In this document: in pieces, positions 15,239 to 60,590 of the stretch
How the letters are laid out: each line of letters starts with the position of its first letter
How positions within the stretch are numbered: the stretch's first letter is position 1
DNA from: Candidatus Pacearchaeota archaeon
GTDB lineage: Archaea; Nanobdellota; Nanobdellia; Pacearchaeales; GW2011-AR1
Length of the DNA: 64,000 bases
Direction of reading: 5' to 3'
NCBI GenBank assembly: GCA_016866975.1
Contig: VGKP01000002.1
Coordinates: 18,866 to 82,865 of the forward strand
Program-made: the position numbers and the translations under genes
Notes under the pieces: model-generated
Databases searched by the model: none
Told to the model about the DNA's origin: nothing
What the model saw: only the letters and a program-made list of their open reading frames with translations

Positions 15239-15478
15239 TATTTTGACTAGGACAGAGTGTTTAAATTACTTTGTGCTCCAAAAACTTTATATATAATCGA
15301 TTAGAAAAACAAAAATGGCGAATGAAGGAATTGAGAATAAGGTAGGCGGAAATGTCCCAAATTTCGATATACAGGATGAAATAGGCCCTATAGAAATTAG
15401 TCTTAGGTTGAAACGTTTGTATAATCTTAGACCAAAAAAAAGATATTCCACATATTATAAAAAAAGGACATATGGAAA

Positions 15479-16206
15479 TTAAAGCTTCTCAATCGCAGGC
15501 AAAATATCCTCAAATTTTGACAAAATCATTAATGGCTTTCCTTTTTTAAGGCGCCCTTTATCATGAAATCCGAAATCAACAGCAATTGTACGTAAGCCAA
15601 CCTTACTCGCTTCAAAAATATCCCCCAGAGTATCTGTTACAAATATGCATTCATCAATCTTTAAATTGTGCTTTGAAAAAAGTATCCTAAATTTCTCTTC
15701 TTTAGATTTGTGCGTTTCAAATCCTAGAATTTCGCTGAATATGTGATTTATGTCAAGGAACTTGACTAAAACTCCAGCTTTTAAGCTGGAGTTGTTCCTT
15801 GAGCATCCAAAAAACGAGCGCCTGCATCAAACTGCGGCTTTTAAGCCGCAGTGGCGCATCGTTTTTTTGATTTTATTGTTCATAAAATAACTCTTAATTA
15901 TGATTTCTTTATTCGAAGTTATAATATACATTTTATATTTTTTGTTTATTTTAGACAGCTCCTCTTTTATTCTTTCCTCAATTTTCAATACCTTGAACTC
16001 CTCTTCCTGTAACTTAAAGAATTCATCAATTGGGCGTAGTTCCTTTGAAAGTAATAAATTGTCATATTCTTTAAATGCATTTCCGTTGAACATGTCCTTA
16101 TAACTATTTTTAGAAATTGAGGGTTTAATTTTTTATATATGCTGTATGCCAGATTAAAAGTGTCATGTATGACGCCATCAAAATCAAAGATAACCGACTT
16201 GATCAT
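15479..16206 (-). pseudogene. HAD-superfamily phosphatase, disrupted by a 1-nt frameshift and by repeat copy A
   Basis: Motif I MIKSVIFDFDGVIHDT (16206 down). Frame shift near 16120-16124 (CCC run). Motif II YIITSN. The ORF then reads into the repeat (..KKTMRHCGLKAAV stop). The C-terminal part FVTDTLGDIFEASKVGLRTIAVDFG continues in the same phase after the repeat and stops at 15479-15481. Confidence 0.8.
15748..15877 (+). mobile_element. Nested-hairpin repeat, copy A (short form, about 130 nt), inserted in HAD gene
   Basis: TTATGTC-CAAGGAAC-ttgactaaaa-CTCCAGC-ttttaa-GCTGGAG-tt-GTTCCTTG ... GCGCC-tgcatcaaa-CTGCGGC-ttttaa-GCCGCAG-t-GGCGC-atcgTTTTTTTGATTTTATT. Identical to copy B. Confidence 0.8.
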
Positions 16207-16212
16207 ATTAAA

Positions 16213-16288
16213 TAGCGCGGGTGGGATTTGAACCGCACGACCTCGAGGTTATGGGCCTCGCGAGCACTCCAGGCTGCTCTACCGCGCT
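16213..16288 (-). tRNA. tRNA-Met (CAU), initiator-like (A1:U72), with atypical C33 and a bulged T-stem
   Basis: Reverse complement reads AGCGCGG-TA-GAGC-AGCCTGGAGT-GCTC-G-CGAGG-CCCATAA-CCTCG-AGGTC-GTG(C)GG-TTCAAAT-CCCAC-CCGCGCT-A. Confidence 0.7.
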
Positions 16289-17266: not shown

Positions 17267-17415
17267 GCCCGGATGGCCCAGCGGTTACGGCGCGAGATTG
17301 CTACCTAAGGAAACCAATGTTTCCTTGTGGGTCAACCTTCTTTAAGGAAGGAAGACGCAAATGGCAAATATCTCGTTTCCGAAAGGATTCCCAGGTTCAA
17401 ATCCTGGTCCGGGCG
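17267..17415 (+). tRNA. tRNA-Ser (anticodon GCU), class II, with 66-nt intron at canonical 37/38 position (17304-17369)
   Basis: Acceptor GCCCGGA/TCCGGGC. Anticodon stem CGAGA/TCTCG, loop TTGCTA|intron|A. Long variable arm TTTCCGAAAGGATT. T arm CCAGG-TTCAAAT-CCTGG. A relaxed bulge-helix-bulge can be drawn (TGCT/GGCA helix flanked by 3-nt bulges). Confidence 0.85.
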
Positions 17416-17470: not shown

Positions 17471-17524
17471 TTGTATTACAAAACCCAAACAAGGCTTAAT
17501 TAAAAATAAGCCTCGGTAATACAA
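17471..17524 (+). other. Nested hairpin with the same architecture as the repeat unit, abutting the integrase-fragment ATG
   Basis: Outer stem TTGTATTAC/GTAATACAA (9 bp), 5'-side A-rich bulge aaaacccaaaca, inner stem AGGCTTA/TAAGCCT (7 bp), loop attaaaaa, 2-nt 3' bulge. Confidence 0.4.
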
Positions 17525-17787
17525 TGAAGATAGATCCCTACAAACACAAGGAAAGGTACTTAGCCTGGAAAGAAGAAGCCATGAAAGGCATTTCATGCGT
17601 TTCTAAGGCTAATTTTGAGATAATAATGAGATTCCTTACAGATATGGAAGTAGGAGCAAATATAGCGAAAGGAAGCACAAAGGGGGCGAGAAGCTACATC
17701 CGCCTTAATACGCTCAGAGGAAAGCTTTGCTTCTTTGCTAAGAAATTTAACGGGGGCAAGCATGGATTATTATGTCAAGGAACTTGA
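17524..17787 (+). pseudogene. Tyrosine recombinase/integrase, N-terminal fragment truncated by repeat copy B
   Basis: MKIDPYKHKERYLAWKEE..NFEIIMRFLTDMEVGANIAKGSTKGARSYIRLNTLRGKLCFFAKKF resembles the N-terminal SAM-like domain of archaeal integrases (from memory). No catalytic R..HxxR..Y region. The last 6 codons lie in the repeat. Adjacent to a tRNA. Confidence 0.45.
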
Positions 17788-17899
17788 CTAAAACTCCAGC
17801 TTTTAAGCTGGAGTTGTTCCTTGAGCATCCAAAAAACGAGCGCCTGCATCAAACTGCGGCTTTTAAGCCGCAGTGGCGCATCGTTTTTTTGATTTTATT
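17770..17899 (+). repeat. Nested-hairpin repeat, copy B (short form)
   Basis: Identical to copy A over about 130 nt, including the TTATGTC left junction and the TTTTTTTGATTTTATT right end. Confidence 0.85.
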
Positions 17900-60180: not shown

Positions 60181-60432
60181 ATGGTTTCCTTAAAAGTATG
60201 GATGGGAGTCACAGGAAATCCGCTAAATTTGGGAGTTCTAGAGAAAAGAGTCAAAGACATGGTTGTTGGAGAGAAAGGATTTATCGAGTATAGGGCAATC
60301 TGTTTTATTGAAGGCCAGGTACATTGTCTGAATTTATGTGCAAATGTATATCCAAATTTTAGACAAAAGAAGGGCATGCCTATAGAAAGGATTGGAAAGA
60401 GAAAAATTGATTATGTCAAGGAACTTGACTAA
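60181..60432 (+). CDS. Hypothetical ORF whose last 7 codons lie in repeat D (possibly the 5' half of a gene split by the repeat)
   Basis: The ORF ends ..KIDYVKELD with the stop inside the repeat. See the finding on frame arithmetic. Confidence 0.35.
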   Translation: MVSLKVWMGVTGNPLNLGVLEKRVKDMVVGEKGFIEYRAICFIEGQVHCLNLCANVYPNFRQKKGMPIERIGKRKIDYVKELD

Positions 60433-60590
60433 AACTCCAGCTTTTAAGCTGGAGTTGTTCCTTGAGCATCCAAACCTCAAGAATATTCTATTCTTGATGG
60501 CATCCAAGAACAATGTTCTTGGTGAAACGAGCGCCTGCATCAAACTGCGGCTTTTAAGCCTCAGTGGCGCATCGTTTTTTTGATGATATT
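60411..60590 (+). repeat. Nested-hairpin repeat, copy D (long form with one double-hairpin module at 60475-60524)
   Basis: Same as A/B plus a 50-nt module CCTCAAGAATattctATTCTTGAtggcaTCCAAGAACaatGTTCTTGGTG. One mismatch in the inner stem of hairpin 2 (GCCTCAG). Confidence 0.85.

Follow-up and report, generated by a model that had tools for sequence, protein, structure and literature searches.

The window considered here is the whole stretch of 64,000 nucleotides analysed, taken from a contig of a Candidatus Pacearchaeota archaeon. On its minus strand, the motifs of a HAD-superfamily hydrolase are spread over separate reading frames, with a short repeat lying between them. The locus therefore raises two questions: are these pieces the remains of a single gene that was broken by a mobile element, and if so, what kind of element is it and how does it move?

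Identity and interruption of the HAD gene

The minus strand holds two overlapping open reading frames upstream of the repeat. The first (16206-15985) begins MIKSVIFDFDGVIHDT, which is motif I, while the second (16093-15827) contains YIITSN, which is motif II, and then runs into the repeat, where it stops, its C-terminal tail ...NNKIKKTMRHCGLKAAV being encoded within the repeat. The sequence FVTDTLGDIFEASKVGLRTIAVDFG lies 3' of the repeat, in the same phase as the piece that contains motif II. Read along the minus strand, the locus thus runs MIKSVIFDFDGVIHDT...KKLNP, a change of frame, ...MFNGNAFKEY...KMYIITSNKEIIIKSYFMNNK, the repeat, and INHIFSEILGFETHKSK...FVTDTLGDIFEASKVGLRTIAVDFG...AIEKL followed by a stop codon. 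The ORFs and their translations place motifs I and II upstream of the repeat and motifs III/IV downstream, which is where the first-pass annotation had put them; its observations that the reading phase is the same on both sides and that the ORF enters the repeat and terminates there also hold. The features of the gene are as follows.

15482-16206, minus strand: HAD-superfamily (HAD_2) hydrolase pseudogene, full extent including the stop codon, assigned from Pfam HAD_2 and from identity with orthologues.
16120-16206, minus strand: piece 1, codons 1-29 (MIKSVIFDFDGV...KKLNP), with motif I (DxD).
16120-16123, minus strand: frameshift site, one base missing at or beside the CCC run (CCCT).
15872-16120, minus strand: piece 2, 83 codons in the -1 frame (SISKNSYKDMFNGN...YIITSN...YFMNNK), with motif II.
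15827-15829, minus strand: in-frame TGA within the element, which terminates the upstream HAD frame.
15748-15751, plus strand: TTAT tetranucleotide 5' of the repeat, itself part of the HAD gene, where the minus strand reads it as codons ATA A.., and needed for its frame and residue count.
15482-15751, minus strand: piece 3, 89 codons plus stop (INHIFSEILGFETHKSK...FVTDTLGD...AIEKL), with motifs III and IV.

When the repeat is removed, the read-through protein matches the Pfam HAD_2 profile (PF13419) over its whole length (positions 1-178 of 178, E 9e-18), with a score of 65.4 bits against a curated cut-off of 23.8. A six-frame search of 40 related genomes identified stop-free, full-length orthologues in three genomes of the same genus, with identities of 57, 54 and 51%. 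Each of them is a single continuous gene of 195-203 amino acids. The best orthologue (genome G008) is also syntenic: RNase HII and an SMC gene in convergent orientation come after it, as in the window. The residues D8, D10, T98/S99, D193 and D197 are invariant in the alignment with the orthologues, and we take them to be catalytic from what is known of the family (motif I DxD, motif II S/T, motif IV acidic GDxxxD). Scanning metagenome contigs returned a further 60 relatives, of which approximately 55 are full-length; all of these span 570-606 nt, which leaves no space for an insert.

The alignment with the three orthologues contains one gapless block of 40 columns that is filled by the window sequence alone. 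The insert is therefore exactly 120 nt long (15752-15871), and at the DNA level it is the 120 nt between ...AAC AAT AAA and ATA AAT CAC... in the HAD gene. This corrects the earlier estimate of 126 or 129 nt, and accounts for the equal phase on either side of the element, since 120 is 3 x 40. The repeat (copy A) is situated between motif II and motifs III/IV, 3' of TTAT. Removing precisely 120 nt restores the gene, the empty-site junction on the minus strand reading ...AATAAA/ATAAATCAC..., and there is no target duplication. There is an ambiguity of 2 nt in the placing of the junctions, because AT is present at both. Alignment with intact orthologues, which the first-pass annotation had suggested as the means of defining the boundaries and any duplication of the target site, yields exact boundaries and no duplication.

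The second lesion is independent of the repeat. Frame a follows the orthologues up to KKLNP, and frame b takes over at the tca at 16120 and has as many residues as the orthologues. As the two frames match without any change in length, a single base must have been lost in the CCC run at 16123-16121 or right next to it. A frameshift at this run had been suspected from the sequence, and it is present in an independent ENA assembly (L095), which is 99.9% identical over 2800 nt, with 3 mismatches and no gaps, and contains both the insert and the frameshift. A second independent assembly (a JGI contig) also spans the element inside the HAD gene. The independent assemblies compared have the same copies of the element, and they revealed no empty site that is polymorphic within the species. 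The gene as it stands is not an intact ORF, on account of both the 1-nt deletion (16123-16120) and the 120-nt insert with its in-frame TGA.

On the basis of these observations we consider it practically certain that a mobile repeat inserted into the HAD gene and inactivated it. Judged by sequence comparison, the two halves are one gene and the repeat is a lineage-specific insertion: the orthologues are undivided and lack the intervening segment, which excludes two independent genes as well as a conserved coding segment between them. The proposal that the repeat is or was mobile is borne out by the absence of the 40 codons from all orthologues, including the syntenic one beside RNase HII and SMC. 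The HAD gene is a recent pseudogene: outside these two lesions no codon is damaged, and its catalytic residues have been preserved.

The surroundings of the gene deserve brief mention. Its start codon is located 7 nt downstream of the 3' end of a tRNA-Met gene on the same strand (window 16206-16213), and the two may formerly have been co-transcribed. This tRNA-Met was identified by ARAGORN (16213-16288) and is absent from the Rfam list at the gathering threshold. Between the HAD stop and the start of RNase HII there is a spacer of 243 nt (window 15239-15481), compared to around 40 nt in the syntenic genome G008; it contains a plus-strand ORF of 55 amino acids that gene callers annotate.

Structure and distribution of the element

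The top strand of copy A is the plus strand of the window, and is thus antisense to the HAD gene. The element occurs a second time in the window, and its parts can be described as follows.

15752-15871, plus strand: repeat copy A, a 120-nt non-autonomous two-hairpin element (GTCAAGGAAC...CGTTTTTTTGAT), delimited by the orthologue gap and equal to the consensus of 22 copies of 120 nt.
15750-15806, plus strand: long hairpin of the left end, with lower stem CAAGGAAC/GTTCCTTG, 5' internal loop TTGACTAAA, upper stem and loop TTTTAA.
15809-15867, plus strand: long hairpin of the right end, with lower stem AAAAAACGAGCGCC/GGCGCATCGTTTTTT, internal loop TGCATCAAA and upper stem CTGCGGC/GCCGCAG, followed by the terminal TGAT.
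17774-17893, plus strand: repeat copy B, identical to copy A and preceded by TTAT at 17770-17773.

A minus-strand ORF (18028-17849) enters copy B and gains the tail KIKKTMRHCGLKAAV before its stop, in the same way as at copy A; that this small ORF shares its tail with the HAD frame had been noted previously, and the two do end alike. Without copy B this ORF would stop just 8 codons later. A plus-strand ORF of 87 amino acids (17524-17787) is also ended by copy B, and would read on in the absence of the element.

The predicted DNA fold that supports the left-end hairpin has an energy of -42 kcal/mol (z -10), and the single-strand z of the element is about -10 on either strand. Both hairpins are built in the same way, from a conserved lower stem, a conserved internal loop of 8-9 nt on the 5' side, an upper stem, and a TTTTAA loop. 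Between the two subfamilies described below, and in nine other genomes of the genus, the sequences of the upper stems have diverged almost entirely, with pairing retained throughout. Compensatory changes of this kind extend to the foot of the right hairpin, where an A-run faces a T-run. The element lacks terminal inverted repeats, the first 25 nt matching the reverse complement of the last 25 at 10 of 25 positions. A known RNA family was also considered for the element and rejected: at Rfam gathering thresholds the only matches are tRNAs, and those on the element itself are at chance level. One of the Rfam tRNA matches lies between copies A and B (window 17267-17415, plus strand, 149 nt, 40.7 bits); it is not in the ARAGORN output, and presumably has an intron.

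The genome (0.8 Mb in 31 contigs) was screened for the element using BLAST and nhmmer. This identified 63 loci, about 48 of which are two-ended elements. The two-ended elements fall into 22 of 120 nt, 19 of a subfamily of 118 nt, 2 of 121 nt and 5 mosaics of 169-221 nt, which hold extra hairpin modules. Copy A has the consensus sequence and 11 of the 22 copies of 120 nt share it in every base, which implies that the insertions are recent; the element is in a recent burst of transposition. Such numbers of copies, and the fold z given above, go far past what chance would produce. Many contigs of the genome terminate in the repeat.

The flanks of the copies are strikingly one-sided. On the left, T-N-A-T is found in 56 of 57 copies (TTAT in 44, TGAT in 4, TCAT in 3 and TAAT in 3). 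The right flank is T-rich, with neither conservation nor mirror symmetry, and the right end of the element itself is TGAT in 50 of 53 copies. No consistent target-site duplication of 2-9 nt was found among the flanks of 26 copies. The orientation of the copies is also biased: at 54 of 63 loci (Fisher p 4e-9) the top strand of the element coincides with whichever strand is richer in G locally, GC skew serving as a proxy for the direction of replication. Orientation is uniform on contig C3 (13/13) and on C2 (6/6, the opposite way to C3), and mixed on C1, which may contain a replication origin or terminus.

Proposed mode of transposition

On this evidence, the element is probably a non-autonomous, PATE-like relative of the IS200/IS605 type, moved by a Y1 mechanism; we put the probability of this reading at roughly 0.75. 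Insertion sequences of the IS200/IS605 family such as IS608 and ISDra2 insert 3' of a specific tetranucleotide, have subterminal imperfect hairpins and generate no duplication (He et al., 2013; PMC3597680). They also insert into the lagging-strand template, which gives rise to a bias in orientation (PMC3597680), and, if GC skew marks the replication strands in this archaeon, the bias seen here would correspond to such insertion.

The proposed course of events is as follows. A Y1 HUH transposase acting in trans would excise and insert the element as single-stranded DNA, recognising the two subterminal hairpins of the top strand. The enzyme would cut behind T-N-A-T in the left flank, and behind the TGAT with which the element ends on the right. 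In a peel-and-paste mechanism this predicts a circular intermediate with the junction ...TTTTTTTGAT/GTCAAGGAAC.... At the HAD locus, the gene-less 120-nt element entered a working gene 3' of TTAT, antisense and between codons, with no duplication of the target. The in-frame TGA truncates the HAD protein past motif II, and the separate 1-nt deletion near codon 29 also breaks the frame.

The hairpins provide a clue as to how the two cleavage sites could be recognised. One position upstream of the upper stems there are four bases, TAAA/GAAA on the left and TCAA/ACAA on the right. The left and right tetranucleotides differ from each other at the place where the cleavage sites differ (TTAT compared to TGAT), giving A:T in one case and C:G in the other. 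This is suggestive, being the pattern that recognition by guides would predict, and we regard these internal-loop tetranucleotides as putative guides to the cleavage sites.

Genes with the Y1_Tnp domain (PF01797) are present in the genome. There is an intact one, in an open frame, at C10:194-541 (77 bits), and others at the start of contig C6 (C6:1-153) and the end of C12 (C12:26760-26912). They represent two distinct families of the IS200 type. The second of these is found at two contig ends and has the right end ATGCCCCACGGTCTTGCCGTGGGGAGCTTCAC; as it ends contigs, it is a multi-copy IS. The first family (C10:194-541) terminates in ...GGATGTCAT, likewise T-N-A-T, which is a weak hint that it may share its cleavage-site preference with the small element. 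No TnpB was found in the genome.

The parent of the element was sought in several ways. No similarity to the element was found in the flanks of 12 Y1 loci from this genome, the genus and the order, which is a small sample. Nor were left and right ends of the element found 0.3-3 kb apart, as expected for an autonomous parent, in 17 genomes of the genus. A Y1 gene is present in 5 of 8 element-rich genomes of the genus and in 2 of 9 element-poor genomes, a difference that is not significant and is limited by the completeness of the metagenome-assembled genomes (MAGs). The three element-rich genomes where a Y1 gene was not detected (G005, G008 and G016) are MAGs that are 62-91% complete.

The closest published counterparts are the PATEs of Haloquadratum walsbyi and other haloarchaea, which are gene-less, and have near-terminal palindromes and no inverted terminal repeats (Dyall-Smith et al., 2011; PMC3119063). 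PATEs form homogeneous high-copy families, cause no target duplication, and have a targeting sequence of 4-5 nt on their 5' side (PMC3119063). Like them, the present element is too short to encode a transposase and has palindromes near both termini, and its boundaries are defined by lineage-specific insertions. It differs in its hairpins, which reach a length of 55-60 nt and combine a conserved internal loop on the 5' side with upper stems that are hypervariable and covary, and in its host, which is a DPANN archaeon with a genome of 0.8 Mb rather than a haloarchaeon. In addition, the palindromes of haloarchaeal PATEs resemble resident transposons of the IS605 type, whereas no such parent was found for this element. 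The lack of similarity to Y1 flanks weakens its membership of the PATEs by descent, but not by mechanism, and it is filed here as PATE-like on the basis of its behaviour rather than of demonstrated descent.

With IS200/IS605 the element shares the tetranucleotide target, the strand-specific ends, the lack of duplication, and the presence of a Y1 HUH TnpA in the genome, and its orientation bias is such as insertion into the lagging-strand template would give. Unlike these insertion sequences, the element has no tnpA, and the hairpins of the resident IS200 elements are unrelated to it. Only around 2 nt separate its left cleavage site from the base of the long hairpin, and the putative guide would be within the internal loop, which again sets it apart from IS200/IS605. 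No published description of this family was found in the literature searched.

Because no transposase with matching ends was found in 17 genomes, three element-rich genomes lack a detected Y1 gene, and the upper stems vary freely as long as they pair, a different route of spread has to be considered. The family could propagate with no cognate IS at all, the enzyme being either a Y1 transposase that reads structure and tolerates hairpins unrelated to its own, or else a nuclease of the host or of a virus that has so far escaped recognition. Some copies could then persist as in-frame peptide inserts in working proteins. We view this as a possible but distinctly less probable course. If true, a cognate-free family with a stop-poor design of 120 nt would be the archaeal counterpart of the palindromic elements of Rickettsia. 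Those elements, on which Ogata and co-workers reported in 2000, are said to be 100-150 nt long, to lie within protein-coding genes, and to be typically translated in functional proteins. The likeness is that of palindromic repeats found inside genes of a reduced genome, with some copies in frame and free of stops (see below); the difference is that the element in the HAD gene adds a stop, and the gene is dead.

The element could also be a classical MITE of 118 nt, moved by a DDE transposase and flanked by a 2-bp AT target duplication, in the manner of Stowaway or Correia elements with TA. The arithmetic fits, as every copy has AT at each of its two junctions and 120 is 118 + 2, and MITEs with terminal inverted repeats are numerous in some DPANN genomes, where they reach high densities (PMC11602168). 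We nevertheless think it unlikely. The element has no terminal inverted repeats, and its flank is conserved on one side only, with T at position -4 in 56 of 57 copies and no mirror-image A on the right. The right-hand AT is always part of the conserved TGAT. Furthermore, an orientation tied to GC skew is unexpected for double-strand cut-and-paste.

Other interrupted genes

To see how often the element has entered genes, copies were removed in silico, and an ORF of at least 40 codons was required on both sides of the junction. An ORF spans the reconstructed empty site in 11 of the 48 two-ended elements, all of them of the 120-nt type or long forms, and in 9 of the 22 copies of 120 nt. Three genes are confirmed as split, the HAD gene being one. 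The others are a NUDIX hydrolase (copy at G000 C25:5965-6084) and a gene resembling 5-hmdU DNA kinase (HMUDK_hel; copy at C1:116277-116396). In both, a single Pfam domain aligns over the junction, and the inserted copy is of the identical 120-nt sequence, in sense orientation. Genes for a MutS-domain protein, a UVR-motif protein and membrane proteins are likely to be split as well. The UVR case lies within the window, where a long form of 170 nt (60415-60584, corresponding to C2:79280-79449) probably splits an ORF of 155 amino acids with the motif at its C-terminal end, there being 79 + 77 codons across its reconstructed empty site.

Such insertions bear on the relationship of the element to bacterial REP and REPIN sequences. 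These are short, high-copy hairpin repeats with a mosaic make-up, which are thought to depend on Y1-type enzymes; they lie outside genes and go with a single domesticated RAYT gene, itself flanked by REPs. The archaeal repeats might likewise be maintained mainly because they serve the host, for instance in termination or in the stability of mRNA, with a domesticated single-copy RAYT acting on them, in which case the insertion into the HAD gene would be accidental. In favour of this, the hairpins are put together as mosaics from modules of several types, long forms included, the top strand has a T-run after the right hairpin, and the genome contains a gene of the Y1 family. However, the Y1 genes have the appearance of common IS200 copies; one of the families is multi-copy and breaks contigs, and none of the genes is flanked by these repeats. 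In contrast to REPs, the copies hit genes, with the frequencies given above, and the element is a two-ended, defined unit with a fixed 5' target. We consider this origin improbable, and marginally more so than that of a MITE.

Two copies of the element are stop-free and in frame with the ORF that they occupy. The copy at C8:6414-6538 adds 40 residues in the signal peptide of a protein of approximately 1077 residues, and that at C3:46637-46758 lengthens the product of a P-loop kinase-like gene by 40 residues, placed after codon 3. Both copies resemble the in-frame palindromic elements of Rickettsia. A repairing mutation that removed the TGA from the P-loop kinase copy was considered and rejected, as this copy has the right end of the other subfamily, with A rather than T at that position. 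Selection for insertion between codons was similarly rejected. TNAT sites in coding DNA are in phase 0 in 44% of cases, in phase 2 in 45% and in phase 1 in 11%; insertion in phase 2 gives a stop-free frame and therefore does not split the ORF, so that phase 0 is dominant among split genes by composition alone.

Copies of this kind invite the suggestion that the HAD gene still works, the 120 nt being either spliced out as a bulge-helix-bulge intron or tolerated as an in-frame peptide. Consistent with this, the insert has a length that is a multiple of 3 and lies between codons, and one frame on each strand of the element is stop-free or nearly so. We find it very hard to sustain: the frame that is read in the HAD gene contains a TGA, and the independent frameshift breaks the gene in any case. 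The junctions cannot form a bulge-helix-bulge, as each end pairs within its own hairpin, and an RNA signal is unlikely in an element that is antisense in the HAD gene and sense in other split genes. The length is not a property of the family either, since the sister subfamily is 118 nt long. Least credible of all is that the split is an assembly artefact, in which a copy of the repeat was collapsed into the gene and a homopolymer was misread. The assembler did struggle with the repeat, at which numerous contigs of the MAG terminate. The same junctions nevertheless occur in the ENA assembly (including the frameshift) and in the JGI contig, and both junctions are in phase with the gene.

Implications

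A small transposon that inactivates a dispensable gene is routine biology. The value of the HAD gene is that it supplies an empty site, something that alignments of the repeat cannot reach: it fixes the length of the element at 120 nt, assigns TTAT to the target, and establishes the absence of any duplication. With this, the family passes from a structured repeat of unknown nature to a mobile element of the single-strand type. There is also a practical consequence for annotation, as pipelines call the fragments of split genes as separate small proteins. Finally, a streamlined genome of 0.8 Mb, of the kind found in symbionts, is here seen in a recent burst of transposition, which bears on how such genomes decay.
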